From Lobosporangium transversale (lineage: Eukaryota), in assembly GCF_002105155.1 (NCBI RefSeq), contig NW_019028989.1, positions 682,001 through 746,000 of the forward strand: 64,000 bases of DNA, written 5' to 3'. The translations under genes and the position numbers were made by a program. Of this stretch, positions 3,013 through 61,587 are shown in pieces. Numbering within the stretch: the first letter of the stretch is position 1; the number at the start of each line of letters is the position of its first letter. The notes beneath the pieces were generated by a model. The model saw nothing but the letters and a program-made list of their open reading frames with translations, was not told the DNA's origin and ran no database searches.

Positions 3013-3612
3013 TTAAAAAAATAAAAAATAAAAAGTACAGATATCAGAAAGCCTGTTGTCTGTTGTTCTCAACTGAATTGAATTGATATCAACTAACTTA
3101 CAGACATTCTCTTCTAGAGATCTTAGACGAGATGCTATAGTACCACCATCAGCTTCACTACCATACTTGCCGGGATCTGGTGAAGGAGAAAATGCCTTGC
3201 TGGGATCTGGTGGAGAGAAGAATTCTGCGGATATGACGACCGGGGTCGGGTCGAGATAATGGTGGTGCCTGCTGCGGTTGTCAGGCAGTGCCACAATCGT
3301 GGCGTTTTTTGGACATTTTTTTTTCTCCGTAAATATATCTAAAATCATCGTCTGGCACGCATGGCATCTGTGGACATGCCGAGGAAACCTTACATGTCCA
3401 ACTTCACTACATTCTTCCCCGGGCGGTTTGAACGTGCCAGTTTTTGTCGGTGTAGTAGTGTAGGCGATGCACAGCTTGTTGGGAATAAGTGGTTTGATGT
3501 AAACGATGGCACTTGTAGGTGTAGGGGAAGAAAGGCTTTCTTTATCATCGTAAGGAGGAGGGAGGGTATTAAGCGTGACAGCCTTGAATTTTTTTGTTAT
3601 AGCTTTAGGCAT
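3013..3612 (-). CDS. Hypothetical 199-aa ORF in the left IR arm (identical to 6273..6872)
   Basis: Longest ORF in the arm; no recognisable domain. Confidence 0.3.
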   Translation of the reverse strand: MPKAITKKFKAVTLNTLPPPYDDKESLSSPTPTSAIVYIKPLIPNKLCIAYTTTPTKTGTFKPPGEECSEVGHVRFPRHVHRCHACQTMILDIFTEKKKCPKNATIVALPDNRSRHHHYLDPTPVVISAEFFSPPDPSKAFSPSPDPGKYGSEADGGTIASRLRSLEENVCKLVDINSIQLRTTDNRLSDICTFYFLFF

Positions 3613-3948
3613 TACAAAAAAAAAAAGGAACTTGATGACAGGAGGAGAAGGTGTGAATTTCTTTTCATGTTGGCTGCCTTTTAAGTTGCGAGTACCCCAA
3701 CTTTTTTACACGACTTACTGCGTCGATATTATTTGAGCAGCATGCTTACATTTTACAGTCGATATTGATTTTTATAGGCGTTTTCTTAAGAAAAACGTCT
3801 ACAAATTTGATTAAATTGACCTCCCTAAATGTTTTATTCTAAAATGACGTTTGGAAAGTCACACATATATATTTCTCACATGACATGTGATGAGAAACAA
3901 AAATTTTTATTTTTTTTACTCATTGCTGCTTATAACAAAAAAAAAAAA

Positions 3949-8900: not shown

Positions 8901-9885
8901 TTTTTACGTATGCGCAGCAGAAAGTGGAGAATAGCTATAAAGACAGGAGTTTTCCCATCTGATTCTCTCTTTGCTCTGTCATCTGTCATCTGTCCTTCTC
9001 TATCATGAGTAATACACGTTTCGCATATTCATCAGCACCGCTGCGGCGTGTGGACTGCGTACAGTTTGGCATCCTTTCACCTGAGGAAATTGTACGTTTC
9101 ATGATGAAAAGAGAAACAAGATGTATTATCGCTGCTTCCCGTAAAGTAAAGCAATATTAATAAATGCTTATCGGTTTCTCACATTTCTTTTTTTCTTTTA
9201 ATATAGAAAAATATGTCAGTGGCCAAGATTGAGCATGCAGAACTGATCGACGAAGCCACTAAGAGACCTAAGATTGGTGGCCTGCATGACCCTAGAATGG
9301 GAACTATTAACCGAAACTTCAAGTGCCAAACTTGCTCTGAAGGCATGGCTGAGTGTCCTGGCCACTTTGGGCACATTGAGCTTGCTAAGCCTGTCTATCT
9401 CAACGGTACACTTAATTGGCTCTAATCAAACAGCATTTCTACTATTATCATTTATTTATTTACTATTTGTTACTGTAATTTATTATTTATTATTTTTAAT
9501 TACTATTGTTAATCTTTATTATCCATTTATTATCTATAATCTGATCTATATCTGTTTAAACTTTCTAGGCTTCCTCACAAAAGTCAAAAAGATCCTTGAG
9601 TGTGTATGCTACTCCTGCTCAAAACTCAAAGTGGACGATGTAAGGATTTGGTCGTTTAGTATTTTTTTTTTTTTTTTTTTTTTTTCCACATAAACTCTCT
9701 ACAGAGAAAAACAAAAACAAAAAAAAAAAAAAAAAAAAAAAAAAAGACACTCAATGACAAAGTGCCAATCGCATCTACTGGATAATTGCATCATCTTTAT
9801 AGAACAATAGCAAGTTTGTTCGCGCACGTCGAATCAGAGATCCTAAGGTCCGATTGAAAGCTGTGTGGGAGTTGGCTAAAACAAA
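6000..9885. repeat. Right arm of giant inverted repeat
   Basis: Reverse complement of 1-3885. Differences I could see are homopolymer lengths and one substitution (3853 G vs 6032 T). Confidence 0.97.
6273..6872 (+). CDS. Hypothetical 199-aa ORF, divergent from the transposase
   Basis: ORF track; possibly spliced and element-associated; no domain recognised. Confidence 0.3.
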   Translation: MPKAITKKFKAVTLNTLPPPYDDKESLSSPTPTSAIVYIKPLIPNKLCIAYTTTPTKTGTFKPPGEECSEVGHVRFPRHVHRCHACQTMILDIFTEKKKCPKNATIVALPDNRSRHHHYLDPTPVVISAEFFSPPDPSKAFSPSPDPGKYGSEADGGTIASRLRSLEENVCKLVDINSIQLRTTDNRLSDICTFYFLFF

Positions 9886-20351: not shown

Positions 20352-20683
20352 TTCTGACGTCTTTAATGGATGTTTCTCAGATTATGCCCTCTCTGTTCTT
20401 TTCTGATTAAGAATAATTAAGAATAATATTTATAATGATTGTTGAATATCACCTGACTAATACCCGATATGATCTGTGCAAACCAATCAAAATGGACTTT
20501 ACAACCTTTACAAGGGCCTAATGACCGTTCTATTCAAGTGGGGACTACCCACCAAGCAGAAACAAACCACCAGTAGCGGAAAAAGCTGCAATCAAAATGA
20601 TATCGCATCTAGTACAGCATTGGCCCACCAGCTAATGAGCATGGATAGATATGACGAGACCCTTACAGTTACTATCTGTTGAT

Positions 20684-23219
20684 CTGTACGGTTTTTGCAA
20701 AAGATTAGAGAGGATACAGGAGACGAAAATAAACAGAACTTACAAATTTTTTGTGGGTGTGCCGGCACCCAAATACTTGTGTCTAGCGTCGTGCGCGCTT
20801 TGCAGCCGGAGCAGGGACTCTTCCGTGGGCTTGTACTTTGCAGGCCTCTCTTGCCTCTCAATTTGAGCAAGACCGATTCTTGCGATGTTTTCCGCCCCTA
20901 CTGCGTCACGGTCGAAGAATACCTTACATGTCCAGCAATATTTAGAGCGAGGGTACACCGTCTCTAAAAAGCTATCGCAGAGAGGTCGGGGACAGCGGGC
21001 GCTGGTGTAAAATTCGTGCGCCCCTACAGTGAAGTGTCCTCGTGCTTTGACCTAAGCGTTTCAAATGGCAGTCGTTTATTAACAAGGGCTCTATGGCTTT
21101 CCAGCTTTTCTTACTTTTTTTAAAAAAAGCCATACCTGTGTGACAAGGTGTCTCGTTATAGCAGTGTGCTTGCTGGGAACTCCTTTACTACTTTCAACGG
21201 ACCCTAGGCCGACGAAAAGCACCCCTTTTCCCCGAGCATCTTCAACACTCGCTGCACCGCGTAGTCGAACGTAGCTCGTTGAGCCTTTCGTAGGTCCCAT
21301 TTTTTTTTCAGGTCCACCTGGACTCGTAGAATTCTTGAAGCACATCCAAATTCTTTGATCCTATCTGTGTCTGGGACTCCTCGTTCATCCATTGAAAGTA
21401 CTCATTGTACGTATCCCTTCCAAACACAGGGATGGCGCTCTCAACCTCAATCATTCCTTTTTCACGCTTCCTTTTGTTCAACAGGTGATTGAAGCGGAGG
21501 ACGGGGAGGTACAAGAACCTGCTTCTCACCTTTACCTTTTGCCGCAAGTTAGGGTTGTGAGGATCCAGGGAGGAAAACGTAAGGGCGTTAACAATACCAG
21601 TATCACATCCGACGATAGTTGTGGTGTTTACGGATGGGCATCGCCCTGGTTTGTTGAATGTGAGCTCAACGTTTTCAAGCAGTTTGGAGCTCCTCTTCCA
21701 GTTTATGTTTGCGTAGTCTTCATCTGTTAGGTCTTCACCGGCCGCCTCTGAACACGTCGTGTTGAGAAATCCCTGAGAAAGCTCCAGTTCTTGGCTGGGG
21801 TCTTCTTCATCTACGTCAGACTGCTGCTGTCTCTTCTTCGTCTGGGTTGTGTCATAGGCAAGTAGATTCAGAACTAGACCGTTGGTAGAAACTGTTCCTT
21901 TGAGTTTGAACCGAGTTAGATCCTTGTCCTGTGACTGCAGGGATACTTTGTCTCGATATCCAAGAACCATGCGATCGCCTCCAATGTCACAAAAGAGAGC
22001 CTGAATCAAAACCCCTTTTGTTCCCTGTACACACTCAAACATTGCAGTCTTGGAAGGATTGTCGAGAGGCAGAATACGCTCCAGCAGCTGCTTGGTATCT
22101 TCGTTCGCCCAGAGGGTGTCAACTAGGGCGTGTTCAGACAGATACACATACCCGGGTGACCAGGGGGACGTAGGAAAGTCTGAGTATTTTTTCACTTTTT
22201 TGTTCTCCCGCAAAAAAAACTCAATGTCGCTCATATCTTCGTTTGTTTTCTCGACATCAAACTAGGAAAAAAAAAATAAAAATAAAAAATAAAAGTCTGA
22301 ATAAAGAGCATTTGATTGCAGAATATACATGAAAATACCTTACACAAGGTTATACCATTGCGTTCCTGTACTGCCGCGTTCCCTCCCAACATCTCACTAG
22401 CTTCCCTTAGGTAATCTCGAAGCATTTTATTGTAGTTCTCGTTCCACGCAACCTTTCGAATTAATCGAAGATTATTAATCGGGCCAACGTCTCGAGGTTC
22501 CTTGAGTAATCATTGCCTGCGATGGCACAGAATAACACCAGATGTTCATGTGATGACGGGCTTAGTGCTTGGATAACGTTGTCTACATCGTAAACCCCAA
22601 ACTTCCGTCTACGGTGTGGAAGGGGTCGCGCTAGGAAGCAGACTCGTTCGCACGCAAAAAAATCAGAGTCTTGGGATATCACGATTCTATCATTCTCCTC
22701 ATTATGGCACCCTATGCATGGGTCCGCTTCATATGTACACAGACAGACATCGAAGACAGAGCTAAGGCCTGTTGCCAGCTGATCCTTTTCCTGGACGCTA
22801 AGGGTGTGGACTTCTCGAAGACCCTTCTGGATGCGCCTCATGACTTGAGGACGAGTCCATACCCCACTCCGAGAATTTCTCTCGAAGGTGCTCATATCGT
22901 TCTCCAAAGCATCCATATTTTTTTCTCTTATGGCTTGCCGTTCTGTCCTTGCTTTTTCTTTCTCAGTACAAGGTTCCCCATCAATATGTATAGTCAGATT
23001 GTCCTTTATCACGAGAGCCAGGGACCTTCCTACATCAATGATGGATTCGCTTTTCATCTTGGCATGGACGACTCTGCGGAGGGTGTCGTAATAGAACGTA
23101 CCGAGGAGATCTACATGAACAGAATGGTCAGGGTTTGCCGCCAAGAAATTGCCCACGTCAGTTTCCGAAGGTAAAACCCCGCGATCCGCAACCAGTTTGA
23201 AGAAGGACTTCAGCCCCAT
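20684..23219 (-). mobile_element. XPG/FEN1-like PIN nuclease fused to Fanzor-type RuvC, copy 1 (frameshifts, internal deletion)
   Basis: N-term MGLKSFFKLV, VHVDLLG, IHIDG..EK, YEADPCI, SQDSDFF, GNDYS. C-term TTIVGCDTG (RuvC-I), FVGLGS..GVPSKH, VGAHEFYTSARCPRPLC..KYCWTC..FDRDAVGAENIA (RuvC-II Glu, Zn finger, RuvC-III). GT-AG introns. Confidence 0.85.
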
Positions 23220-23284
23220 GGTCAATATCTAAGCGAAAGAGAAAGAAAAAGGAAAAATGGTGGTGATGAAAAGAAATGAAAAAG

Positions 23285-23317
<33 letters not shown>

Positions 23318-26229
23318 GACAAAGGTATAAAAGGATGAGATTTTTTATGGTTTAAAGATCCAAAGTGAATAGATAAAGAATATTGAGGGAAAGATACAGG
23401 AACAAGTGGCAGTGGTAAAAGGGATGGGACTTTGAAGGAGGAAGGCAATGGTCCCTTTTTATATCCTGGATTGATCATGAATTTTAACATTGTCTCATAT
23501 AGTTTTGATATCGATCCTTTGCTTCACAGGCCACATCAATCTTTATTCAGTTTCTTTGTTTGGATTGGGGTTTGTTCAAGTCAATAGCAGAGATTGACAA
23601 ATAAATACAAGCTCTCGCATGAACGGCAGATTGGAAACAATAGCATTGAGATACCAAAGTGAGCATTCGAAAATCATCTCCATATACAGCATACAGTGTC
23701 GATGTCGATCCTTTGTTACACAATTTTTTTTTTTTTTTTTCAGTTTCTTTTGTTTGTACTGGCCCTTGCTTTGTGCTTTGTGAGGAATTTAATGAATAAA
23801 AGAAGATTTATAATTTTGAACAGGGGTAATAAATGCATTGACAGATATGACTCGGTGATTATAGGTAACAACTAAAGAAAAAAAGTCTTTTTTTATCAGA
23901 GAATGGCTTCAAATGATGCTCTTTGCTCCAACAGCCCCAGTACTATTGCGTTAAAGCAGAGATATTCGTTGACTCTCAGATTCCGGCATCAATGGCGGAG
24001 ATAGGAGTGATGTAGTTGCATGCGCTTATTGCTTGGAGTTAAAGCTATCTAAGCACCCTTTCTTACTGGACGATGCCTTGTTAATGGTGATATTGCGCAG
24101 CGCCTTGTGGATGGAGGGAGAGCAGAAGCGAGAGTGGTGGTTTTTGGCGGTCGTTTGGTGTGTGTATGTGTGAATTTGATAGTTGATACCAATCGCCAAA
24201 ACATATGCATCTAGAAATACAGAAGCGAGATTGATACCGACGCGTTTGATCCTTTCCTAGGGATTGTTATAACCATGGGATGATTGTGGAGTGGCCACCA
24301 AAATAAAGTTTGTTTGGAGGCACCAATGGAAAACGCTTGTGTTTTGAACAAAAAAAGACGCCGCGATGTAAAATGTGTTTATACATGTACAGAAACCAAA
24401 GAGATGCTTCAGCTGCTTATTCGTGCACACAGTGATTGACGAACAAAAAAGGAAAAAAAAGCCCGCGATGAAAGAAGGCATGTGCAGACAACAAATAAAC
24501 ACAGCAACTGTTTGCTCACATACATTTTTTTCACCGTTGTCTGTATCTCTTCTAAGCTTTCTGTCTGGCCGTCTAACACAAGGAACCCTCAGAAAGAGAA
24601 ATACCTCGCATGATTGGTGCCAGGTCTGAAAACAACAATAATGCAATGCTGTACGTGGAAGATAGGGTCTAGAAACTATACCATTGATCACAACTGCTAC
24701 TCATGCCCTCTTGCCAAGGACTTGAACATGCATACCAACCCCTTCTTCCTTGCTCTCATAACCGCTCACATCCTTTCGATGCATTCTTCCGCCGTTTATG
24801 TCCACTACATCTGAACCACACACAGTTCACCACTCACTCCAACAGAGATATTTGTATCACCTTGGGTATGATATGTTGTTGTGGTTCCCTCTGGTTTCAA
24901 CAGGCCCAACAAACTCTATTAGCAGTGTTTACCAACCCAGATACATCAAGGGAACGCAAGAAGACGAGCAAGTAAATGATGTGACAAATCAAGTCTTGCC
25001 GAGCTTTACAGGGTGCGGTAGAATGAATCAACTCAGATTGCCCTCCTTTCAAGTCGAGACTACGGCGGCGAATATTATCACTGCTATATTACACCTGTCA
25101 ATAAATAAACGATACAATGGACTCCCAAGAGGATGCTAGGGTCATGCGAAAGTCTTCATGAGTTTTTTATTTGCACAAATAAAGAAGCCAGGATAGCTCC
25201 ATGACAATTTAGTTTTCGGTCATTTATTTCGACATCGAAATGAATTTTCAAGACAATGCCCATGGATTGCTGGATTTTAAGCCCATTTATAATGGCAAAT
25301 TTGCCCTTGTTACGGACGAAGGGATAAGGCACCTTTGGGTCAACTACTTTGATAATGACCAGTCAATATGTAAAGTGGATAAGTTGCATTTCCGAATGAA
25401 GGGAAGTTTCGAGGAAGAACAACATAGATAACCTCTGTTTCAAGCGATTTTCGCTTTTACCTCAAAGTTTTTCATTTTTTTTCATTTGAAAAGTATACAA
25501 TTAGCCGCCGTGTAAGAAGGCGTTGATGTGATTATTCTCAAGAGTTTACACTAAAGTGCTTTTGGTCACGCAGTCATTTGAATCTGAAGTTTACTTGATA
25601 CAGGGTTTACGACAGATCAGACATGATGGCAGCAGCATTCAAATCATATTCAGTCTCTCAAGGCTCCCACAGGACTGTATTGGCAACCTTTATGGTGAAG
25701 GTGTTCACAGAGTACAGATATAAACGCAGAGACAAGCGTTAATGAGCTTCTTAATGAGAACACAGCATAGATCAAGCAAACTCCTACATGATACGTGTCT
25801 CACTGCAGACGTTCAATAGTGGCAACGTCTATCGTGACAATACAACAGCGATGCTACTTCCAAGTGGAGGAGAAATTATTCAAGAGCTCACCAAGATTAT
25901 CCCATGAAGCACACTCATATTAATAATCTCAATGGTCTATCCGATATAGTTCTACTCTTTAGCGGGTTGAGTCTGGACACCTTGAAGCGCCTCTCCAATT
26001 GGGAGCAAAGGCCCCTTAGTTCAAAGCAGATCCTACATTGATTGCAGCATGAATTTATGCAAGCCTCATGTGTCCACGCAGAATTCAATAAGTATTTTAT
26101 CATTCCATAACCCCGTAATCCCACGAAAAGTCATCTTTAATGAATACTTTTATCGAGCTATACTAGACATTTTTGAATTTTTATTTTACTTTTTTTTTTA
26201 AAAAAAAAGAAAAGAAAAATCAATCGTCT

Positions 26230-28976
26230 TCATCCTTCAACGGAAGTAGAGTTGGCCTTGTGTTTAGGATCAAAGCGGAATGCCTCAGGAGCTGGCCCTA
26301 AAATCATTTCACTCAGCTTAATCCAGTCCTTGACATCAGGAGAAGCCATCAGTGTCTCAAGGTCATTACGTCCAAAGAAAAGAGGCGGCCGATCATTCAT
26401 CTTTTGCGGAAGGACCTCAAGCAGGCCAACTGGGACATAGCGATGCAAAAAGCCTATGTAGGGTATAGCAATAATAACAGGACGATAACAACAGGTCAAC
26501 TGAATAAATCGATTCAATGACCGCTTCCAAAACTTTTATCAATGGATACATACTTTGCCACTCTAACAAAAAACGACGGGTTTGGTTAACGCCTTGAGTA
26601 TCGGAACCCCAGTGTTCTAGCCCATAATTACAAAATCTCTTCATCATATCGAAGCGCTCGCCAGAAGAAATGTCCCAGTCGCGGTTTGACTTTATCTCCT
26701 CAAAGATCCAGGGCTTCATCAATGCACCACGTGCAATCATGCATCCGTCCACATTGTGCTCCTTCATATGACGATAGTAATCTGAGGGTCCGAGGATATC
26801 TCCATTGCCAAAGAGTGGCATATAATCATCTGCACCTAGAGATCCACGATTGATTTTAGTACATTGGCTAATATAGTCCCAATCAGCTAACTTGGTGTAC
26901 CGTTGTTGTCGTGAGCGGCCATGAAGAGTACCAAGAGCCGCTCCAAAATCATAGAAAAGAGATGTCATAGTTTCGCCAATTGGCTTCTTGTCATGTACAG
27001 CCATCCTAAATTTGACTGTGACAGGAACATCCAGTACTGTCTTCATTCCCTTGATCATTCTCTTGATCTTATTGGGAGAGTTTAGTAGTCCACTTCCAGA
27101 GCCCTAGCAATGCAAAAAGAATAACGTTCATCAACTTTCGAGATCTAACTAGGGCAAATACACAATGTATAGTTATGTTCTAGCCACTGGATTTTTTACA
27201 TTGTTGTAAACAAGGTCGATCGGGCACCCCATGTTCAAATCAACAAAGTCTACATTAGCCACCTGGTTGATCATATCACAGGCTCTAACAACAACATCGA
27301 CCTTGTTACCAGTCAACTGCACGCCAAAAATGTCTTCGCTTTTGTGTCTTCTCAAAAGAGCCAGCTCTCCCTTTTGTCCCTGTACTAGATTTGAAGCCAT
27401 GGCCATCTCGCCACACGTGATGTCAACACCATATTCTTTGCAAATGCGTCGAAAAGGTAGGTTTCCAACCGTAGTGAGAGGTGCCAAGTATGTCTTGCCC
27501 CTAAAATCGATCTATGAATGATAGGACATTTAAGTTAAATATATTAGGTAAAAAACGATACGTCTGCTTGATATATGCTCATGCCGTATTGAGCATCACC
27601 TACCTTCTTCTTCTCGCATGGGCGTAATGGAACATCAGGCGTGTCGGCAAGTGTAGGACCATCTATAGCAGTTGATGTTGTAATACTCTTGATATTTCTG
27701 CCTTCCAAATCTAAATCCTGATCCGATATAATCGTCTCTGTTTCTTTAGTAGCTGTGTTGGACGGGGACAGCGTCTCATTGCTACTAATTTTATCTACTA
27801 TTTGCTCTTCAGACTTATTTGGCGCATTTTGTGCAATCTCCTCTGCCATTTTCTTGACATATGCCTCTGATCGTGAAAAATCGAACTAAATATAAAATAT
27901 TATAATAACAATTAATAATTGCGAACATCTCTTGAAGAGTATGTCAATATCAGTTCAGCCATTTGTAGCGGATGGCATTTTACATACGTTGAAAGATCGG
28001 AGCTTAAGAGTAAGATCATGAGTGAAGACATTGAGAGACTGGGGTTCATATTTAGCGATTTTTTCTTTATCCTTAATAAGTTTCCCGTCTGCGTCTAGAT
28101 GAGCGCTCAAATATCTGCATTTATATCCGTAGTGACAGCTAATCCACAATGTAAGGACGAAGCCTTGTGTTAAAAAAGGGAAAAGGATTAACTTGATAAA
28201 ACATATTATGCGCTAAATGGGACATTAAAATGACCTATTATAGCAAATCAATAAGACGTACTCTCCAGTCAGTTCATAGTTAGGGCAACGGTCACCTAGA
28301 TCCTTCCCTTTTGCTTCCAGATACTTTTGAACATTATGATTAAACTTGCAGCTATAGTGTAAAATCATCCACGGAGCAGAGTACCAGTTAGAAAATATAC
28401 ACCTGGTATCATTTCATTTGCAACACTAATGTATGGGCAATACCTATCGCCTTTATCGCATTCCTCGCCTCTTGCAACTTTAAAGCAGATCTGAACCTCA
28501 TCTTCGATGCGACGTGTAACAACTCGATCCTGAGTTTGCCCTCCACGCTTCTTCTTATTATTCTTGACATGCTTCTAAAATATTCGATGAAGAGAAAATA
28601 TAGTGTTAACACATTGATCAATGAAAGAAGCCATACCTTTCGGTGGCCTTTTAGGCAAAATAAAATGAAATGAAAATAAATAATAATAATAGATAACAAT
28701 AATTACATCTTTACGGCTTCGCTTGTTATTATCATTCTTAGTATCCTCGTCTTCTTTTAAGCTATTATTGTCACCCTCTCCAGTTCGTCCCTCATCGCCT
28801 TCTTTCTCGACCGTTTCACTTAAGGAAGCTATGGTTTCCTCCTGCTGAACTGCCGCTGCTTTGGGGCGAATATACTGGGGTTTTATGGGTGAAATTCCCT
28901 TTTGATAGGTTGTACTTGAGGAAGATTCATCTTCATTCAACATGGTTGCTGTCGGTGCAGGGTTTTCAGAAGACAT
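26230..28976 (-). CDS. DUS3: tRNA-dihydrouridine(47) synthase Dus3 (multi-exon)
   Basis: [99 protein letters not shown]-terminal CCCH fingers. Confidence 0.95.
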
Positions 28977-29523
28977 GTCTGTTGCCTGTCTGTCGTGAAG
29001 AATTATAATGGTACATCAGACAGTTGAAAAGCCCGACGTTATCCTCAAATAAGCAGTCATTTCTGTTGATCCGCGAAAAAAAAAAAAAAAAAAAAAAAAA
29101 AGCAGCACATGCGATGCTAGTCTACCTTCTTTTATTTCACAGCATATTAAGCTTTTTTTTTTTCTGCGAGCTTTTGCTAATGAAGCTTCCTCCCTGAGTT
29201 AATCAGAGAAATGGTTGGTGACGTGAAAGAACAGAGCCAAAGATGCATCAAACGGGCTCTACTCTCTTTTCCGAGATGAACTTGGCTAGAGCTTTGTTAG
29301 CTTTTTTTTACATCTATTTTTCTCTGTTGCATCGCATTCAATATACCTCTCAGAAAGCTTTTATTGAACGAGCCATTGACATACTTTATAGCGGTATGTA
29401 ACCCCTACAAACGCATTTATCCCATCTAAAGGAAGACTGCTTTCTAATAATGCCATTCAAAATACTAATTCTTTGAAAATTGATAGTCTTGACCTATACA
29501 AGAAAAAAGGAAGGCAGTATCCA

Positions 29524-32500
29524 ATGTTTGGTTCTACGTTGACTTCATCACGAGGCGTCCTCTTGCCATCAAAGGCTCTTAAGCTCTTCAATCTTTACAT
29601 GGAGGATACTCGGAGAATAGACAATGACCATGCCATCCTCATGGAGCTGTGTCTCGATGCAGACTTTGCGCTGTCTCGAATTGGGCGATCGGAGAGAAAG
29701 AATCTGGCCTCTTCAGGTTCCATTGAAGACAAGATGCTTTATCAAAGTATCGGCTCGGCCCATTATGAAGTTGCTCGCTTATTCGAACGTTTGGGTCGCT
29801 CAAATGATGCCAAGAAGAGCGACATAAAAGCAGAGAAATGGGGATATGTCCCAGGAAGCAGCAATATATGTCAACAACCATCACGATTCGGTAGCTTTAC
29901 TAACAATAACAACAACAACAATAATATCAATGCTAAGCAGGAGAGCGGCGGCAACAGCATCAGCAAATTGAAGGAGATGAATAAAGCAACAAAATTTGAA
30001 ACGACACACAGCATCGCAGTTATTCCCTCAGATATTTTTGACCGCGACGTAACTCAAGCGACCTTCAAGTGTAACCTGCCAGATCCAGATACTCCATTAA
30101 ATAATACCCAGCAGCTAGCCTACTGTCTCACTTTGCTTTCGACTGCACAACAACCACTAAAGGATCTTACAGCTCAGGAGCAAGAGTGGTCTTCGGCCAC
30201 ATCGAAAGATCAAGATGAGAACGCTAGACTTTATAACTTGGCTTCAGATGTAATTGCAGTGTTCATCGAGGATGATATCAAGACTGAGGCTGCTGTTGCT
30301 GAGGTCGTGATGCTGGCTCCAGTTCTCAAGCATGAACAATATAGGAAAGTGCTCATGACCTTGGTCAATGGAATCAGCCAGAATATCATGCTGGCGACTT
30401 ACTTGCTTGAAGGGTTGGCTCAGCTGATTCAGCATGCTTCTCCTGGATACCTCGACTCTGATGATCTGGTCAATATCCTCAACACTCTCAATTCTCGCTT
30501 ACAGGGAACGCACATGGAGTCCAGCAGCCATATCTATCGGCTTTGTGTTACAGTCTCACATGTGCTTGATGCCATGATAAACAATCAGGTTAAGGGTCTA
30601 AAACGGGAACAGCTCCATGAGCCATTAGCAGCCTACTTGAAAGAACTAAAAGGCAGCTCAGATCCTCATCTGGTATACCATGCAGCCTATGCTTTCCAAG
30701 CTCTGCTATATATCCCAAATGATGAGTCATCAATGCAGGCCATGCTTCGACGTACATCAGCAGTGGCTCGAGGAGTATTTGGACTAGTGAGTGCAGTCAA
30801 AGAATTAAATCTAAATGACTTTATGGATGAACTAGCCAATATTCAGAATGAGCTTCATTATGTAACAGACATTGTTGATAAGAGTCTGGATGTGTACAAA
30901 GGCGCGGTTTCACTATACGAGAGTGGAGCGGCATTCAAACAGGATATGGAAGAAGGGCTCAGCTTTAACCGCAAGACTGCATGGTATCCAGCGCTCCGCG
31001 GAGCTGATGCACTCCTCCAGACTGGCGAGTTCACCAAGTTCAAGACTCTTGTGTGTGAAACATCCTGTCGAAATGATACAGCATTCCAATGGGGACTATG
31101 CCAGCGGTTAGGACAGATTGCAGCCAATCCACAATGGGACCTGAAGGTTCGACAAGATGCCATCGCATTCCTTGGAGAGATGTACAAGAATGACAAGGAT
31201 TGGGGCCAACATGTGAAGATCAAACAATGGATTGTAACTATACTGAAGGGATTGACCTCGTTACCAATCGATGGTCTACAAGGTATGTAGATATGATATG
31301 GTGTCTCCGTCATCATTGAGTCGGTTATGAGAAGCGAAGATACTGATGCTGATGGTATATTATCTATATACATTTCATTGTAGTTGTAGAGTCACTCCTG
31401 CATGATCTTGCTACGGATGGAGATACCAACAAGCAACAGCTCTTCAGCAATTGCTCTCAAGAGGCAATAAGACAATACCCTTTTATTGTCGCTCTGCCTC
31501 CGCCTGCATCTCCATCATTGATTAATCGTGCACAGAATAGGCCCGATGTGGAAAAGAGTCTGCGTCTACTCATGCGACAGCGGATGGCGAACAGAGATGA
31601 TAAATACTTTTACATTCAACAATATGCCAAAGCCAGTCCACAAGCGAATGACGACGACTCGTTCTTGCTGATGGACAAGGTGAATGAGTTCCTGGACAGC
31701 GATCAGAAAGTTCTACTTATCCAAGGTGATTCAGGGGCAGGCAAGTCGACATTCAACCACGCTCTAGAGCACACTCTGTGGGAAGCATATCAAAAGAACC
31801 ATGATCGAATCCCACTATTCATCAATCTACCAGCCATCGATGACCCATCCAAGGATGTGGTCACAAAACAGCTGCGAATGTATGATTTCACCAAGGAGGA
31901 GATCAAGGAACTGAAGATGACCCGGTCATTCATCTTGATTTGTGATGGGTATGATGAGGCTATGCAGACTAATAATCTGTATTTCACCAACCACCTCAAT
32001 CAGCCTGGTGGGTGGAAGTGTCAGATGGTGATCAGTTGTCGTAGTGAATATCTTGGAAATGATTATCGAAGCCGCTTCCAGCCTATGAACCGCAATTACC
32101 AAGTAAACGCAGAGTTGTTCCAAGAGGCTGTGATTGTACCATTCTCTGAGGCTCAGATCGATGACTATATCAAGCAATATGTCGCAACAATGGACATACT
32201 GTGGGGTGCAGAAGACTATCTGCGTGCACTTAAGATGGTCCCTAGTCTACGAGAACTTGTGAAGAATCCATTCATACTATTGATGACGCTAGAAGTATTG
32301 CCACGAATGGTAGATCCGGATCAAGATATCTCCAAAACGCAAATCAAGCGCGTCACGCTGTATGACCAATTCGTTGAGCTGTGGTTTGAGCGAGGCAAGA
32401 AGCGATTAGGCGAGATATCGATGCCAGAGGATAGGAAAATGTTCAGAATACTATGCGATGAAGGGTTCGCACAAAATGGGATCTTGTACTTGAAAGAGCT

Positions 32501-35500
32501 TGCTGTGGCAGTCTACAAGAATCAAGATGGCAATCCAGTGGTGGATTACTCCCCATCCAAGGATAGGAGTACATGGAAAGAGGAGTACTTTAGCAGAGAT
32601 AGCAGGAATAATCTCCTGCGAGAAGCATCACCTATGAGCCGCACAGGTGGCCAGTACCGGTTTGTGCATCGGTCTATTCTGGAATACTGTGTGGTACGAG
32701 CGATGTTTGAACCACAGAAAGTGACAAAAATGAACGCTATTGATACAGAAGCAACAGCGATACCGAATTCCCGCCGAAGGAGCATCAGCTCTGTATTCAG
32801 TTTTGAGGCGGAAGAGAGCCAAGCAGTTGAGCAGGCAGCAGATCCAGCCGAAGCGAATGAGACCTCGCCTTTGGTGTGGAGAAGCTTTGTGAATGAGCCA
32901 TCGATTCTTGAGTTCCTGAAAGACCGAGTTGGAATGGAAGCAAAGTTCAAACGGCAGCTATATGAGTATGTTGAACTGTCGAAGAGCGACAAGCAATGGC
33001 GGACAGCAGCAGCAAACGCAATGACGATCTTAGTCCGAGCAGGAGAGTCGTTTATTGAAGCAGACTTGCGAGGCATCCAGATCCCAGGAGCCGACCTTAG
33101 CCATGGAATATTCGATGGAGTTCAACTACAAGGAGCAGATTTGAGGAATGTCAACCTTCGTAGCTGTTGGCTTCATAACGCAGACTTGAATGGAGCAAAG
33201 ATGGCAGGTGTACAGTTTGGAGAATGGCCACTTCTTCATGCAGGAGGGAAGATACTCCAGGTATCATATTCGCCTGATGGTCAGACATTAGCTGCAGCTG
33301 TGTACGATTATGATACCGATGAGTATTATGTCAGGATCTATAATACGTTGACATGGGAGAGGTGTATGAATTTGGGGACGGAAGAATACGGCCAGAACTT
33401 TATCTACTCCCCAGACAGTCGACACATTGCCATATGGCATAAGGAGAAGAGTGCGGTTCTTGTGTTCGATGCAACATTAGGCACAGTAGTTCATAGGTTC
33501 GAGGGTCATACAGATGTTATCTGCTCAGTAGCATACTCTCCAAATGGTGATTATCTCGCCTCAGCTAGCAAGGATGGATCAGTGCATGTGTGGGATGCCA
33601 GGTCTGGAATGACCCAATACATAATAGAGGCTCATGCTAGTAAGGTAGCAAGCCTGGTGTATTCACCTGATGGAAAGCAGATTGCAACTGGAGGTGAAGA
33701 CAAGGCGGTACGGTTATGGGATGCTGCATCAGGGAAGCTGATGCTAATGCTTCAAGTCTATAGTTCGCAAGTTTTGCAAATCGTATATTCACCTAATGGT
33801 CAGGAAATCATCACTCGCTATGAGGCCCGTAAATCATTGGATGTATGGGATGCTAGATCTGGTCAGAAGAAATGGGCCCTAGAGCATAAGGGCGATGTTG
33901 ACGGCGTTCAATATCCTCCTGATGGAAAATACGTCGCTTCATTCTCCAAGAATACAGCATTTCAGTGGGATATGCAAACAAGGGAAATCATTCATACTCT
34001 TACTGGTACTTCCAGTACCATTAATGGCTTGAAATATTCGCCAAATGGAGAACAGATTGCCACTTACGGCAAAACAGTGCGACTTTGGGATGCTCGATCA
34101 GGACAGCTGGTCAACACATTTTGTGCCCATTTTATTAATGTAAGGGGTATGGCATACCCACCAAACGGCTCTCAGGCTGCATCATTCGGTGAAGATGGGA
34201 CGATACGGCTGTGGGACACACAATCACAGCAATCCAACCACGATCAATATGGCCATACAGATATCATTAGACAAGTGAGGTTCTCACCGAATGGTCAGCA
34301 TATGGCCTCATTCAGCAGGGACGGTACAGTGCGTATGTGGAATGTTCGAACAGGACAGTGTATCCATGTCTTACAAAGCCGAGCAAAGGACATTAAGTAT
34401 TCGCCTAGCGGCCAGCTGCTCGTATCTATCGATCCCTTAGTTGATCCCATTTACTATTGGGACACTGAATCAAGCCAGATTATTCAAGTCTTACGCTCGC
34501 AACACCAAAGCGGAGGCATCAATGCCTTTGATATTTCACTCATTGGCCAACAAATTGCTTGTGGCCATGGAAAGGGGAACGTGACTGTATGGGACGCGCG
34601 AACAGGACAGCTCATACATACTCTGCAAGGGGGTAGATATCTTGTGCGTTCTGTGCTATTCTCGCCTAATGGTCATCAGATTGCTTCTTATGATAACAAC
34701 AGTAGGATCAGAGTCTGGATGGTGCACTCAGGAGAGCTCCGGTATGAATTAGAAGCCATGGGACTGGATAAGCCTTATTTGGTTTACTCGCCTGACAGTC
34801 AGAAGATAGCATTTGTTCAAGACTACAAAAAGCTACAAGTACGGAATGCGGAAACAGGCGAGCTCTGCCACGAAACAATCTTCGATGGTATTCCACCACA
34901 GATAGCATTTTCGCCATCCGGTCGACTGGTAGTTGTTGGAAGTGCAAAAGGGCCAATTAATATGATGGATACTGAGACAGGGACTGTGCTACATACGCTC
35001 GAAGGGCATACCAACTGCACAGTCAGCATATCTTATTCTTGCGATGGCCAGTACATTGCCTCAAGCAGTGAAGACGCGACTGTACGACTGTGGGATACAG
35101 AGTCAAGCCGGTGCTTGGCTACTATCCCAATCGCAGCTGGATATGTTCATACCCTTGGATGGAGTATTTCCGAGGAGGATTACTTTCTGGCGACAGGACA
35201 TGGTGATGGCTGTATTCGGATGTGGCAAATTGTCAAGAGTAAGGATGGCCAATGTCATACCCGCTTGAAGTGGAGCACAAAGCAAACAGTTCTATGCGCT
35301 ACAGGAGCAAGCATTCGAGATGTAGCGGGCTTGAGTCAAGCTAATAGAAAGCTTTTGGAACAACTTGAGGCTGTTGGTGATCCAACACAGTGTCCGACTT
35401 CCCAAGCATCAAATCATGAGACAAAAGCAGTGCCATCTACGCCATCTGAGCTGGGAAGCGACGTTTTGAGTACGATATCAAAGAGGAGCAATTCTAGAGC

Positions 35501-35675
35501 AGGGCTATTAATCGCTAAAAGTGAAGGAATCAAAGAATATCAATTTATTTGCAGCAAATGTAATGAATGCAACGAGTGCGATGTTGCGCATTTTATCTTA
35601 TGTGGCTCATACGACAGTATCGATAGCACTGATCTGCACAAGGTGAAGAGCGCACATATCGATCTAATAGAGTGA
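29524..35675 (+). CDS. NLR-like STAND protein: Arm-like N-terminus, NACHT, pentapeptide repeats, WD40 repeats (intron ~31283-31383)
   Basis: Walker A GDSGAGKST, Walker B LICDGYDE, ISCRSEYL, FVHRSILEY, ADLRGIQIPGADLS pentapeptides, many GH..YSP.G...A....D..VRLWD repeats. Confidence 0.93.
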
Positions 35676-39713: not shown

Positions 39714-39765
39714 TATAAAAAAAAAACACAAAGTGAAAGGGGGGAAGAGAAATGAGAAAGAAAGG

Positions 39766-39804
<39 letters not shown>

Positions 39805-56034: not shown

Positions 56035-56186
56035 GTCTATATGTTGTCTAAATAGTCCTCCTTATAAAAAAACACCATCTAGACCAAGCATAGAAATAAA
56101 GAGATTAGTCAAGAAAGCACTGTCGAGCTAATACTTACAACTTTTTCAAGACGAAGGCCTTTCCCGACCTAGTCATGTTTGTAGTA
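56035..56186 (-). repeat. Diverged copy of the 3' flank of the PIN-Fanzor gene (inverted relative to 60982-61175)
   Basis: Reverse complement tactacaaacatgactaggtcgggaaaggccttcgtcttgaaaaagttgtaagtatt matches 60982-61038 tactacaaacatgactaggtccagaaaggccttcgtcttaaaaaaattgtaagtatt; weaker similarity continues outward. Confidence 0.85.
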
Positions 56187-56540
56187 TCTCATGAAAAATT
56201 TTAGACAGACAAATAGTAACCAGGGAGCAGAAGTGAGAATAGGATGTGGGTTCACACATCACATCCATGGGGCATTTATCCAAATTTGTATCAAAATAAA
56301 ACTGCAAGTTTGTCTCGGGCACCACACCATGGGGCATAGAGCTGTTAGTATGTCTGTATTATAAATTTTCATGTAACACGTGTACTGTGAAATATGCAAC
56401 TGATCATATCCTATTGTTGTTGCCGGCTTGGTGTCTTTCCTCCCCATGGATTCAACGAAGGCTATTTTGGTATCTCGAGTTTGGACTCAACCTGTCAGTG
56501 AGCATTGGTGCAACGCATATAAGGCACACAGGCTGTTGAC

Positions 56541-57150
56541 GAGCCTACTTCTCACCTTCACCGTTTGACGCAGGTCAGGGTTGTGACGGTCTAGCGAAGA
56601 AAACGTAAGGGCATTAACAATACCAGGATCGGATTAGACGGTAGTTGTGGTATTTGCAAATGAGCATCGCCCTGGCTCATGGAATATGAGTCCAACGTTT
56701 TCAAGAAGTTTGGGGCCCCTCTTCCAGCTTATGTTTGCGTAGTCTTCATCTATCAGGCCTTCACCGGCTGCCTTTAAAACACGCCGTGTTAAGGAATCCT
56801 TGAGAAAGTTTCAATTCCTGGCTGAGATCTTCTTCATCTACGTCAGACTGCTGCTGTCTCTTCGTCTGGACTGTGTCATAGGCAAGTGGATTCAGAACAA
56901 GGCCATTGGTAAAGTCGTTCCTTTGAGTTTGAACCGAGTTATACCTTTGTCTTGTGCCTGTAGGGGTACCTTGTCTCGATAGCCATGAAACATGCGATCT
57001 CCTTCAATGTCACAAAGAGAGCCTGTATCTAGACTTCTTTTGTTCCCTGTACACATTCAAACACTGCAGCCTTGGAAGGATTGTCGAGAGGATGTCAGTT
57101 AGGACGTGTTCAGACAGATACACATACCGAGGGGGGACGTAAGGAAGTCT
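56541..57150 (-). pseudogene. PIN-Fanzor copy 3: degenerate fragment around the RuvC-I region
   Basis: Collinear nucleotide similarity to 21514-22181 (shared gaaaacgtaagggc.ttaacaatacca, cagactgctgctgtctcttc, aatgtcacaaa.gagagcctg, gttcagacagatacacata) with indels. Confidence 0.88.
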
Positions 57151-57327
57151 ATTTTTTTTATTTCTTGTTGATTGTCATGGCGAAGGCTTGATTTGGTAAA
57201 TGTAGATGATTGGAGAAGAGCTGTAAACAATACTCGAAATCCAAAAAGTTAAAACCTGTCGCTGAGAATCTTATTGTTTCGAGTTGTTCCAAATTCATCA
57301 GCCTTTTGTTTCGTTCTCTTTCATACA

Positions 57328-57337
57328 CCTATAAATA
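57328..57337 (+). promoter_or_regulatory. Putative TATA box of PIN-Fanzor copy 2
   Basis: CTATAAATA, then a pyrimidine-rich leader and a putative 5' UTR intron (gt 57463 to tag 57553) abutting the ATG. Copy 1 has TATAAAAA on the minus strand near 23455-23463. Confidence 0.4.
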
Positions 57338-57553: not shown

Positions 57554-60500
57554 ATGGGTATTAAAGGACTCTATTCATACCTTTCAAGGAGAGACCTGCC
57601 ACCAAAGGAGATTGATGTACATGAGCTTGCTGCTGAACCCCATTCATCTTTTGAGCTGGATCTGCTTGGCACTTTCCACAGCGATATACATAATATCATC
57701 CTAAGGAGATTCAGCCGGCAGAGTTCTTTCACTGCCTGCGGCCATGCTATGGCTAGTATCATTCGAAAGATCTTTGGTCCTCTTGCCACAGTGACGATAC
57801 ACATTGATGGGCCTCGCTGCGAAGAAAAAACGCGTGCCTATAGGGACCGAGATGCTAAGCGTACAGCAGCGGATGCAAAACTCGATACGCTCATAGCCAA
57901 CATGGAAACCAAGTCCAATGAAGGCAAATGGGAATCTCGAAGCCATATGATTGCCATTAAAAAGAATCTTCGACAGCTCTTCACATTCAGTCATAACGAG
58001 AAGAGGGAGCTCGTGGCGCCATTCGGTCGATACAATAACTTTGTGATTTGCCATTGTAGAAATGAGGCTGATGTGTGTATTGCCGCCAAATGTACACCAA
58101 CCAGTATCGCTGTGTCTGGGGACTCTGACCTTCTCATCTATCCTTCTATAAAAAGAGTTCTTCGTCCAATCCCTCGTCGCCATCACATGTTTGCACTCTA
58201 TGAGAAACAAGAGGTCCTGCAAGCCCTTGGGTTTTCAAGGAACAGTCAACTCCTGGTCTATGGCATTATATCCGATAACGATTACACCCCAAATATCCCA
58301 ACCTTTGGTCTTGCTACAAATGCTGAGATTATCTCCGCGCTCACTGACACTGATGCCGAAAAGTTGACGGTATCATATGTTCGTGAGGTCCATGCCCGTA
58401 GCCGTCGAACTCCTGCAGAAGGCCAGTTTGACCATTCAATTAATGTTTTCTTTGGTGGGATCCAAACCCAGGCCTCGCAGCAACCAACCGCTGAAAGATT
58501 CCTTCATTACCATGATAGAATGAGGACTGCGATATCTGCTAGGTACCAGAATAAAAATAATCAACCTCAACCCAGGTAAGCTCCTTCAAATGAACATTTT
58601 CCAAAGCATATACAAAAAAAAAAAAAAAAAAAAAAAAAAAGTCATCTAACCCTTGACATTGTTGTTCCTAATTAGATTCTATATCCCTAAACGCGCAAAG
58701 CCGAATCGCTATCGGCCTGTTTTCCCTACCCAGAAAAAGGAACTTTCCCCTAAGAAATATGACCTGACCAACTGCAAACAACACGACCGTCCCGTCAGCT
58801 CCAGCCGTCAAAGAAAGTCCCCCAAAAAAAAAGGAAAAGGAAAAAAAAGAGGATGACAAAGAAGAGGAGGTTAAGGAGGAAAAGAAGAAAAAAAAGAAGA
58901 ACAAAGGGAAGGCCAAGTATATCAGAAAGACTGATAAGACCAGGAAAGTGAAGGAGGCTACTGCCGAGGACCGACGGTTGAAGAGGGCCCACCCCACTGT
59001 TGCATTAACTCTGGGCACGTTAAAGACATGTGTAGTTGCCAAGCTGGACTCTACTTCCGATCCCAATCTCAATCCCGAGCAACTTGCTGCAACAATTCAA
59101 GGGCTCAATCAATCATTTATTAAAATGTTGAATGAGGCACGGATTCGAGCTTTCTGGGCCTGCGCCTTGTGGATCGATAACCTGCTTACCACTGGGCCAT
59201 CCAATCCAGCTGATCTCCCACAACTCCTAGATGAAGTTCTTGATAGCAGGGACTTTATTTACGGCCTTGCTGCGTTGTTGTATCACGGAGTGATGAGTCC
59301 ATTATCTAGGTATAGCAGGGAAGTGAAGAAAAAAGGCGAAGGGAACGTAGCCAAGCCGTCCCAGCTCAAAGCATACGAAAACTTCTATGCAAAGACAGGG
59401 CTTGGTCCTTTAAACCAGATCTATCCCGATTTGGTGATCAGCAAGTCGTCTCGGATGGTCATGGTCCCTGTTCGAGCAGCGCTAAGGTCTCACTATCGGA
59501 ATGCGCAGGTAAATATAATATTATAATATTTTGAGGTTATCTTATAATATGTTTATAGAAATGTTCCTAATCATTTCTTCAATATAATGTCTAGTTTGAC
59601 ATAGATATTCCAGGCGATGGAAGAAGTTCCATCCAATTCTTTTTTGAGCAAAATGCAACTGCCAAAAAATATCTGGATTTCCCTACGTCTGCTTTCCCGC
59701 CTCGGTCTCTCTGCCTAACGGAAGCCTGCCTCCTGGATATATTATGGTCTAACCCAACAGTTCGAGAGGAAATAGTCCAATTGTTGGAACTAAACATGAG
59801 TACCAAGGGGGCTGCGGAGGACAAGATCCTTAACCACAAGGGGATATTGTTGCAGGAGCTGTTTTCCTTGAAAGGATACAAGGACGTTGGACTGCAATCT
59901 GATGATGGCCCTAGAAGGAAACTACGGACATCGTTCTTTACAAACGGCCTTACCCTAACACTTCTTGCCTATGACACATCGAAGCAAAAAAGAGGTAGAG
60001 GTTCGCAAGCTGCCCAACCTTCGGATACTCAAAGATCTCAAGCAGTCCAGGCTTCTTCAAGTGCTCAGCAGGGATCCTCGTCTTCAGGCCATGGTGCAGG
60101 TGATGGTGGTGATGATGGAGACGACGACGGAAATGAAGATGACGATATCTTGCTGGGTATCAGCGATATTGACTTGCTGGAAGTTGATGAACCATTCTTA
60201 GATGGCGACGAGGGAGAAGAAGCAGCTGAAGAAGGTACATCGAGCACAAATCCACTGTCCCCGGTGAGTCCCAGTCCCCGGCGTGAGATCAACTGGAAGC
60301 AGAGATCCCGTCTCCTCGAGAATGTAGAAGTTAAATATGACACCCAGGCAGCATGCCCTCCCCCCGAAAGTACCATTATCATTGGGATCGATCCAGGCGA
60401 GAGGTACTCGATGACAATTGCAAAGTTGGATCCAAGGAAACCTAACGAACGTGAGATCCTCCGGATTTCTAGAGCGTACCTTTACAAACCATCCAAGAAG

Positions 60501-60972
60501 TTTCAGGGCGAGCTAGAGAGGCGAAAGCTTAGAAGAGGAATTACAGAGATTGAAAGCCATTGTAGGTTATCATGAATACTACACATCTGCCAAGTGTCCA
60601 CGACCTCACTGTGACAGTATATTGGAGAATGTTCCTTTTCGATCCAAGTACTGTCGAAATTGTAAAACATACTTTGATCGAGATGCTGTTGGTGCTGAGA
60701 ACATCGCAAGGGTCTGTGAGTCGCAGATAAGAGAGCAAAAACGACCTGCAAAATATATGCCACCGGACGGAGGAACTCAAGGCCAAGCTTCTAGCGGTAG
60801 TGGCGACGGTGGAGGTAGTGGTGGCAGTGGTGGCAGTGGTGGTGGTAGTAGCAGATCCACAAAAAGGGAATTTTCAGATGAAGGAGGAGGAGGAGTAGAG
60901 GGATCAAGACCACCGAAAGGACCTTTGCTGGGTCCAGGAGGAGGGGGAGAGACAAGCCGGCAACAACAGTAG
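57554..60972 (+). mobile_element. XPG/FEN1-like PIN nuclease fused to Fanzor-type RuvC, copy 2 (exons ~57554-58575, 58676-59508, 59595-60972; frameshifts and a deletion between RuvC-I and RuvC-II)
   Basis: MGIKGLYSYL, FELDLLG, IHIDG..EK, NEADVCI, SGDSDLL, DNDYTPNIPTFG (H3TH); Lys-rich linker; TVALTLGTLK; FTNGLTLTLLAYD; IIIGIDPGE (RuvC-I); VGYHEYYTSAKCPRPHC..KYCRNC..FDRDAVGAENIA. Confidence 0.88.
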
Positions 60973-61587
60973 GACACAATCTACTACAAACATGACTAGG
61001 TCCAGAAAGGCCTTCGTCTTAAAAAAATTGTAAGTATTGGCTTGATAGTACTTTTTTTTCTTGGTTAATTTATTTATTTATTTATTTCTGTGTTCTAATA
61101 CATTTCTTCTTTTTACAATTGATGGAATGTCTCGTTTTTTAATGGGACGGACTACACATGGGATAGACACAGCCCAAACGCCTCGAGGCGTCGTGGCTTT
61201 CTTCTGATGACATGAATCCCATGCCTGTGTTCCGTTGGGCAAAAAAGAGAAGCCAACACAGCATGCGGCGAAATCGTGGCTCTGTATGCGGGAAAAAAGA
61301 ATCGCGGGACGTACTATTTGCATGTAATTCACTCACTGAAAAAAAAGTTTTCTTTCTTTCTCACACAGTTGTTCTCTTTCTTTTTTTCTTTCTTCCTTTC
61401 TGATTGTTCATTTTGCATAATTATTAATTTCATTTTATTTCGCTCCACTTCATTTCATCGCAACTGTTGCTTTTTATACAAATCTACTCATTATAAAAAA
61501 TAAAAAGACATTCCAAACACTCAATCTCCTGTTTAATCTTTCTCTGATCCACAACAAAAATATCAGCAAAAAGAGAAAAAAAAAAAA

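Follow-up and report, generated by a model that had tools for sequence, protein, structure and literature searches.

The Fanzor1 proteins, exemplified by SpuFz1 of Spizellomyces punctatus (9ceu/8gkh), PpFz1 and GtFz1, are RNA-guided nucleases of about 600-800 amino acids (aa) that share a WED-REC-RuvC-zinc finger fold. The elements that encode them are often non-autonomous (PMC3627910, PMC10432273, as far as these sources go), a terminal stem that takes in the target duplication is reported for their guide RNAs (also named omega RNAs; PMC10711439, PMC13565253), and homing has been described for TnpB and Fanzor (PMC13565253). Here, we describe a multi-copy element of the fungal family Mortierellaceae in which the intact members are predicted to join a whole Fanzor1 to a 5′ nuclease of the FEN1/EXO1 type. 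The analysis concerns a stretch of 64,000 nucleotides (nt) of Lobosporangium transversale (assembly GCF_002105155.1, contig NW_019028989.1, positions 682,001 to 746,000), referred to as the window, which holds three broken copies of the element, i.e., copies 1, 2 and 3.

Proteins of this family are found among already catalogued Fanzors. The table of hidden Markov model matches in the supplement of Yoon et al. 2023 (PMC10711439) contains 96 occurrences of Mortierella, 106 of Linnemannia and 1 of Lobosporangium, and one of its rows (KAI8351750.1, 1186 characters) starts, as judged by eye, with the same PIN motifs. The words "PIN" and "XPG" have 0 occurrences in the available text and supplement of that paper, i.e., the proteins are listed as Fanzors and the head is left undescribed. 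Neither a FEN1-Fanzor fusion nor a spliceosomal intron in a guide RNA is described in the accessible parts of Saito 2023, Jiang 2023, Yoon 2023, Bao and Jurka 2013, Xu 2024, a 2026 review of OMEGA systems (short for obligate mobile element-guided activity), the ESM preprint, Matelska 2017 and a review of poxvirus recombination, i.e., in mostly open literature. What is new here is the FEN1 head of these Mortierellaceae Fanzors and the predicted intron-split guide RNA.

Other described systems resemble the element in part. A preprint by Buck et al. 2024 (PMC11071296) applies the name "Fendons", in one sentence, to "candidate Fanzor flap endonuclease homologs" of two large DNA viruses and guesses at a role in recombination; its main text gives neither a definition nor a sequence, and Fendons may or may not be fusions. 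The engineered T5-exonuclease-Cas12f protein exoCasMINI (PMC12337685) also has a 5′ exonuclease tethered to a TnpB-family nuclease, but is man-made; the FEN1-Fanzor fusion is a natural counterpart of such constructs, which were made to raise editing. IStrons (a group I intron combined with TnpB) likewise contain an intron that overlaps the guide RNA. Their splicing is reported to be self-catalysed and in competition with the guide RNA; in the present element, by contrast, spliceosomal splicing would complete the guide.

The fusion family

Relatives were collected by word-based searches, which yielded 2, 7 and 16 proteins, and by a full HMMER scan with the intact protein P0008 (1186 aa, Mortierella alpina) as the query, from which the best 150 of 920 matches at E≤0.001 were used. 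The resulting set comprises 166 proteins, 17 of at least 900 aa, 26 of 500-899 aa and 123 shorter than 500 aa. Both domains are present in 16 of the 17 longest proteins, the remaining one being truncated at its N-terminus (PIN cover 0.24), and in 8 of the 26 proteins of intermediate length. The named long fusions are from Mortierella, Linnemannia, Entomortierella, Dissophora, Actinomortierella and Benniella, and three long fusions are metagenome records. Across Mortierellaceae genera the fusion recurs at 21-74% identity, and in relatives at 21-50% identity the domain order and the continuous reading frame are constant. A preliminary description of copy 1 had argued that the two halves are not a chance juxtaposition, and this order, this frame and the presence of both domains in the longest proteins bear the argument out. 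A FEN1 gene beside which a Fanzor happened to insert is refuted by the same order and frame; no point was found in favor of such an origin, which is vanishingly improbable.

Four scans of viral contigs returned 52, 2, 6 and 112 pattern matches, none of which was a family member. Within L. transversale, copy-1-type proteins are found on 9 scaffolds of different length, and the proteins of this species are also the nearest named ones to copy 1 (91-93% identity over the PIN open reading frame (ORF), 97% over the last exon). The contig depth of about 130-230 versus 6-13 was taken as a sign of a repeat only, not as a copy number.

Separate trees of the PIN and Fanzor parts were calculated for 19 fusions, after P0032 and P0034 had been dropped from 21 for low RuvC fill. 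Of 16 splits, 9 are common to the two trees (at random, a mean of 0.22 and at most 3 in 2000), and of the splits at ≥95, 5 in one tree and 10 in the other, 3 are shared and none are in conflict; the Mantel rho is 0.80 (0/5000). Between copies 1 and 2 the synonymous differences have reached saturation (proportion 0.74-0.90), and the non-synonymous divergence (dN) is 0.75 for PIN, 0.62 for WED/RuvC-I and 0.26 for RuvC-II and the zinc finger. A comparison of dN with the synonymous rate (dN/dS) for each domain, as had been suggested, gave values for the Fanzor part on unsaturated pairs, 0.16 for loci L003 and L006 (8 changes) and 0.28 for copies 1 and 3 (201 codons); the PIN part is saturated and offers no usable pair. 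An old family under selection on both nuclease sites, as previously proposed, is upheld for the family by its recurrence, near-invariant sites and largely congruent trees; for copy 1, a pseudogene, it finds no support. The family is both real and old, and its intact members are single proteins predicted to join a FEN1/EXO1-type 5′ nuclease to a whole Fanzor1.

The Fanzor1 part

For the model of P0008 (predicted local distance difference test (pLDDT) 83.4) the match to SpuFz1 (9ceu) has E 7.3e-11 and spans 871 columns; the model also matches PpFz1 and GtFz1, and FEN1 (3q8k) at E 1.4e-9. The whole-chain match to the three Fanzor1 structures includes the enlarged REC region. Among 21 aligned proteins the RuvC-I Asp is found in all 21, the RuvC-II Glu in 15 of 16 filled rows and the RuvC-III Asp in 16 of 16; the RuvC-I motif is DPG in 13 of the 21 members and D(L/F/S/T)G in the others. 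The WED region has TNG in copy 1 and T(N/D)G in 17 of the 21. The catalytic Glu is repositioned to six residues before the zinc finger (ExxxxxxC, a definition taken from PMC10711439; HEFYTSARC in copy 1), and the C4 zinc finger followed by RD, a motif noted by Bao and Jurka, is present in copy 1 and in the family. Sequence comparison gave less: the last exon of copy 1 matches Pfam Cas12f1-like_TNB at E 1.2e-5 (25.8 bits, slightly below the cut-off of 26.3), the sole match of a sequence profile to the PDB under E 0.001 is a Fanzor2 (9b0l, E 9e-4), and an earlier PDB profile search with a 4-sequence alignment returned no match.

The family shares with Fanzor1 the whole fold, DPG in 13 of the 21 members, the repositioned Glu, RD and TNG/TDG in the WED region, a predicted 3′ RNA with a terminal stem ending in TA, and the occurrence in many copies without an internal transposase. 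It differs in having a FEN1 head of about 340 aa and a basic linker, which bring the total to 1100-1500 aa, and in the predicted introns inside the guide scaffold. Unlike Spu-1, for which terminal inverted repeats (TIRs) of 30-33 nt are reported, no TIR was found in the element, of which the left end lies beyond 24400. In two distant metagenome fusions, P0119 and P0166, the RuvC triad and all FEN1 residues are kept and three of the four zinc-finger cysteines are lost.

The FEN1/EXO1-type head

The N-terminal domain had been described as PIN, a label that, judged from alignments and models, is better read as a FEN1/EXO1-type 5′ structure-specific nuclease. The model of the copy 1 PIN ORF (22464-23219, pLDDT 90.5) gives Foldseek matches to FEN1 (3q8k, E 4.7e-7) and EXO1, and the family profile matches FEN1 at E 2.2e-9, aligning with FEN1 D34, D86, E160, D179, D181 and D233. 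A helical arch is seen as helix 85-117 of the copy 1 model, with its K and R in 19/19 filled rows. The FEN1 active site is nearly invariant in the 21 aligned proteins: D34 in 17/17 filled rows, D85, K92 and R99 in 19/19 each, D191 and D243 in 21/21, and E171, D173 and D193 in 20/21. The features by which FEN-like nucleases are defined in PMC5499597, i.e., four invariant Asp, two acidic residues before H4 and the H2TH/H3TH Asp, are all present. Pfam XPG_N and XPG_I identify no family in the copy 1 ORF, and XPG_I is found at E≤0.01 in 4 of 36 members. A VapC-type toxin PIN/RNase was rejected, since a helical arch and an H3TH are present.

The described FEN1/EXO1/XPG nucleases, among them poxvirus G5 and the FEN1-like proteins of giant viruses, resemble the head in fold, arch Lys/Arg, seven acidic residues and H2TH/H3TH, but the identity is only 11-21%, and the present head is tethered to an RNA-guided nuclease in a repeat element. 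Models of giant-virus FEN1-like proteins match the head about equally or slightly better (E 2.5e-9, template modelling (TM) score 0.68-0.73, in a different library), and the Atlas places it beside Nucleocytoviricota XPG and Pox_G5 clusters (0.94-0.95); these likenesses give a hint, and only a hint, of a viral origin.

The copies in the window

Copy 1 is a dead copy of the element, i.e., a pseudogene. The motifs listed in the preliminary description were all recovered by three-frame reading at exact positions, for the FEN1 part at 23219 (ATG), 23114 (VDLLG), 22985 (IDG), 22730 (EAD), 22670 (DSD) and 22514 (NDY), and for the Fanzor part at 21886 (TNG), 21610 (GCDTG), 21018 (HEFYTS) and 20913 (DRD), together with the four zinc-binding cysteines. 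The strong divergence from copy 2 is also evident (identity 32% in PIN, 40% in WED/REC columns and 52% in RuvC), and the phase-0 intron at the same codon, QYRNAM|FDV in copy 1 and HYRNAQ|FDI in copy 2 (59509-59594), is joined alike in the annotated P0177 and P0003. As described, an AG precedes the ATG, by 9 nt in copy 1 and directly in copy 2; in locus L004, of a distant family, it lies 2 nt upstream.

The architecture of the fusion, which copy 1 was said to preserve, is however not intact, with four single-base frameshifts, a deletion of 323 residues and the change of DPG to DTG. Contigs of four public runs have one extra base at each frameshift (near 22485, 21313, 21228 and 20815), the first of which stops the PIN frame within the H3TH. 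The deletion, at about 22376 in comparison with P0177, takes away the last stretch of the FEN1 part together with the basic linker and most of the REC region of Fanzor, and loose ends of the public-run contigs at 22374-22377 mark where other copies continue past it. In the protein model of copy 1, seven residues that follow the deletion stand in a wrong frame. In 3 of 3 close relatives that cover the RuvC-I motif it is DPG. Measured against majority letters, copy 1 has 16 synonymous and 20 replacement changes, a ratio of 0.38 (36 coding rows among 40 of 261).

Copy 2 belongs to another subfamily; its reading frame shifts within an A-run near 58826, and at least 146 residues are missing within its RuvC at 60557. 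Its intron after the FEN1 exon (58576-58675) begins with an in-frame stop and contains a 27-nt A-run, and many PIN-only metagenome records end there. An upstream coding exon was rejected, none being seen in the 5′ exon of copy 2. Copy 3, back to back with copy 2, is a mosaic in which a coding part like that of copy 1 is joined to a 3′ end like that of copy 2, i.e., the subfamilies recombine.

A predicted intron-split omega RNA

The region 3′ of the stop codon was compared in 10 ends, i.e., those of the three window copies and of 7 metagenome loci (from 123 pattern matches). All 10 have a hairpin, the sequence of which varies, an A-rich linker and TT, and in 8, the three window copies and five of the metagenome loci, the linker is followed by the splice donor GTAAGT. 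The donor motif occurs 3 times in the window, once per copy, and a stricter form gives 2 matches versus 0.02 expected; in copy 2 the donor lies after 61029 and the acceptor has decayed. Loci L001 and L005 lack the intron and read straight on in the joined form, the TTT-ATGG of L005 being the join predicted for L002, L003, L006 and copy 3. A second predicted intron in L002, L003 and L006 delimits micro-exons of 12, 6 and 6 nt, respectively.

In the predicted spliced form a stem runs from the final base of the upstream exon to a closing TA. Element ends were observed for three subfamilies. The closure of the stem coincides exactly with observed ends, at 20673 in copy 1 (a single loose end of run X7) and at the point where L003 and L006 diverge (39/40 alike before the element end, 9/40 after it). 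Compared with shuffles with fixed ends, the terminal stem has p 0.005 in copy 1, 0.018 in L003 and 0.001 in L002, where the end was placed by homology. At the fourth pair of the stem, copy 1 and L001 have C-G, and L002, L003, copy 2 and copy 3 have G-U; one stem pair is broken in each of copies 2 and 3. Automatic consensus folding (MAFFT and alifold) yielded no structure common to 8 spliced ends, and the stems were anchored by hand at the splice junction. None of 6 loci had a match in Rfam, and a second Rfam search gave a single MIR408 match, judged to be due to chance (27.5 of 64 bits). Run X7, for which an RNA nature is only guessed, shows no joint at any predicted intron and was not used for or against splicing. 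From the sequence pattern of these ends, the guide RNA of the element is probably spliced by the spliceosome. If so, an OMEGA RNA would be produced and regulated in a new manner, its guide being completed by splicing, and a spliced guide would explain why attempts to clone the raw 3′ flank of intron-rich Fanzors can fail.

Proposed mechanism and alternatives

Intact members of the family may be RNA-guided homing enzymes that cut and trim, a reading of the sequences and models to which we assign even chances. The order of the domains, the conservation of the catalytic residues, the repetition of the copies, the decay of copy 1 and the conserved 3′ donor motif are shown by the sequences; the following steps are proposed. 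RNA polymerase II (Pol II) would transcribe through the 3′ end of the element into the flank, and removal of one or two spliceosomal introns would bring hairpin 1 and the A-rich linker next to the terminal stem, as an omega RNA followed by a flank-derived guide. The RuvC site would then cut the empty allele or a sister site, where the tethered FEN1/EXO1 domain would resect 5′ ends or trim flaps, so that repair would copy the occupied allele by gene conversion. According to PMC9415595, a viral FEN1-like nuclease is required for break repair and recombination. Because the head is kept with both sites over deep divergence, the homing model is directly testable; the value lies in the intact relatives P0008, P0006 and P0009, the window copy being dead. 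A wider formulation, in which the family represents a widespread fungal two-nuclease OMEGA class, i.e., Fanzor1 bearing FEN1/EXO1, with a scaffold spliced from up to three exons (including the 6- and 12-nt micro-exons) and host splicing as a switch, is more tentative and stays short of an even chance, including its boldest form, in which the protein would moreover drive spread to new sites without a classical transposase.

Several observations weigh against homing by such an enzyme. Neither activity nor RNA nor an empty allele was observed, and copies 1 and 2 are both broken. Most of the 123 matches below 500 aa among the 166 contain one region (39 PIN only, 36 RuvC only), and stand-alone single-domain forms may exist, the more so as the fusion itself was the query and biased the set; yet these short proteins look like exons or partial models, because they are colinear with P0008 and many PIN-only ones stop where the first intron of copy 2 starts. 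The congruence of the PIN and RuvC trees extends to the shared splits and not to the full topologies: in approximately unbiased (AU) tests (5000 replicates, too few according to the program) each domain's topology is rejected by the data of the other (p 1e-41 and 7e-7), and a grouping of P0171 and P0071 together with the M. alpina set is rejected by the PIN data (p 0.024), while the Fanzor data are compatible with the PIN clade (p 0.16). Physical linkage alone suffices for congruent trees, which are therefore no proof of one common substrate. When the 3′ end is left free, the junction stem reaches p<0.05 in only 1 of 10 ends, and single hairpins are not significant compared with shuffles (z +0.7 to -2.25).

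The fusion could instead be the mobilization enzyme of its own element, where RuvC opens the target and FEN1 trims flaps during copy-in, with no DDE, HUH or recombinase transposase involved. The repeat continues for at least 1.2 kb upstream of copy 1, to 24400 or beyond, the left end being beyond reach of the contigs. Within this covered sequence no transposase, TIR or left end was found: 28 upstream ORF pieces (27 of 23387-26198 and one more) contain no credible Pfam family, with three weak matches below the cut-off (E 0.02-0.04), and the window contains no inverted copy of the right end at ≤3 mismatches, the right-end 18-mer matching only itself. These absences fit self-mobilization, as do the many copies and an intron 11 nt from the element end, which fits a TIR poorly. 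Because the left end was not reached, a transposase or TIR may lie further out, and the non-autonomous nature of many known Fanzor1 elements also speaks against this explanation. Neither domain, moreover, is known to join DNA. Self-mobilization is rather unlikely, and movement to new sites is by default ascribed to a transposase acting in trans. Helitron ends were rejected, CTRR not being general.

It is unlikely, too, that the FEN1-type domain acts on RNA or RNA:DNA, either in 5′ trimming of the omega RNA from the mRNA or in clearing R-loops after cutting. The predicted omega RNA begins near or inside the end of the ORF, the donor of L004 and L007 lying 35-45 nt past the conserved C-terminus, and FEN-like families include XRN and the herpes vhs RNases (according to PMC5499597); but the best fold matches are DNA-bound FEN1 and EXO1, with XRN1 in 45th place, and ordinary Fanzors mature their RNA without a FEN1 domain. 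That the halves are inherited together and act as separate products, with retention of the first coding intron yielding a FEN1-only protein, is very unlikely: the in-frame stop of copy 2 lies right after the FEN1 domain, and many PIN-only records of 342-390 aa end at the first-intron position, but P0006 (Logan), P0119 and P0143 (ENA) and P0166 (JGI/IMG) are single full-length records, and the checked PIN-only records are mostly metagenome gene calls or labelled "partial". A putative Pol II promoter, several introns, deep conservation and the frequent giant-virus proteins among the Atlas neighbors of both halves would suit a domesticated host system, e.g., for defense against viruses or elements, rather than a selfish one. 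With many decayed copies in different flanks, several subfamilies per genome and all three window copies broken, domestication is highly improbable.

Features of the window

The layout of the copies is given in Table 1. In the non-coding 5′ arm of copy 1 a 33-nt direct repeat (23496-23528 and 23690-23722, 82%) is spaced by 194 nt, and further in-register matches around it possibly reflect a degenerate 194-nt tandem duplication.

Table 1. Positions of the element copies and of their observed and predicted parts in the window
Feature	Position	Strand	Basis or remark
Copy 1: non-coding 5′ arm of element	23464..24400	-	High-depth contigs, 3/4 runs, all 30 bins of 23330-24400
Copy 1: TATA-like box, putative Pol II promoter	23456..23463	-	Sequence; counterpart 5′ of copy 2 near 57331
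Copy 1: pyrimidine tract and AG, predicted acceptor of an intron in the 5′ untranslated region	23229..23237	-	Same in copy 2 (57553) and L004
Copy 1: FEN1/EXO1-type (XPG/PIN) 5′ nuclease, helical arch, H2TH/H3TH	22379..23219	-	Frameshift near 22485
Copy 1: internal-deletion junction, 323 residues of P0177 gone	22372..22378	-	Loose ends of other copies at 22374, 22376, 22377
Copy 1: phase-0 intron common to copies 1 and 2	22262..22355	-	P0177 joins across
Copy 1: Fanzor1 WED (TNG), acidic insert, RuvC-I (GCDTG), REC2 helices, GLG	21136..22261	-	Frameshifts near 21313, 21228
Copy 1: RuvC-I Asp	21604-21602	-	
Copy 1: predicted intron 5′ of RuvC-II (RHLVTQ|VKARG)	21052..21135	-	In-frame GT..AG; P0106 reads through same join
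Copy 1: RuvC-II Glu (21015-21013), C4 zinc finger, RuvC-III Asp (20907-20905)	20783..21051	-	Frameshift near 20815
Copy 1: family stop codon	20785-20783	-	P0177 ends here
Copy 1: hairpin 1, predicted omega RNA	20755..20770	-	6-bp stem, -8.9 kcal/mol, z -1.14
Copy 1: A-rich linker with final TT	20744..20754	-	Alignment of 9 ends
Copy 1: predicted 60-nt spliceosomal intron within predicted omega RNA (GTAAGT..CTAAT..CAG)	20684..20743	-	Motif once per copy
Copy 1: last exon of element, final TA; 4-bp terminal stem with last base of previous exon	20673..20683	-	X7 loose end 20673
Copy 1: flank, would-be guide sequence	20655..20672	-	Suggested by Fanzor architecture; outside high-depth coverage
Copy 2, another subfamily	57554..61064	+	FEN1 exon, two coding introns, Fanzor1 with RuvC deletion
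Copy 3, 5′-truncated fragment	56051..57170	-	Resembles copy 1 (84%) in its coding part and copy 2 (83%) at its 3′ end

The window also encodes RPB1, dihydrouridine synthase (Dus) and WD40 genes, all of which have introns. An inverted duplication (1-3885 and 6000-9885, 99.9% identical over 3887 nt), the arms of which reach into RPB1, may be a real palindrome or an assembly fold-back; its 2.1-kb spacer contains the remnant of a pogo/Tc5-type transposase (HTH_Tnp_Tc5 at 5244-5606, DDE_1 at 4134-4760). Two Dus genes lie within 13 kb on the minus strand, at 26417-27103, which looks partial, and at 37720-39797. A large gene on the plus strand (29392-35675) encodes ARM_5 and multiple WD40 repeats and presumably resembles those of fungal NLR-like proteins.

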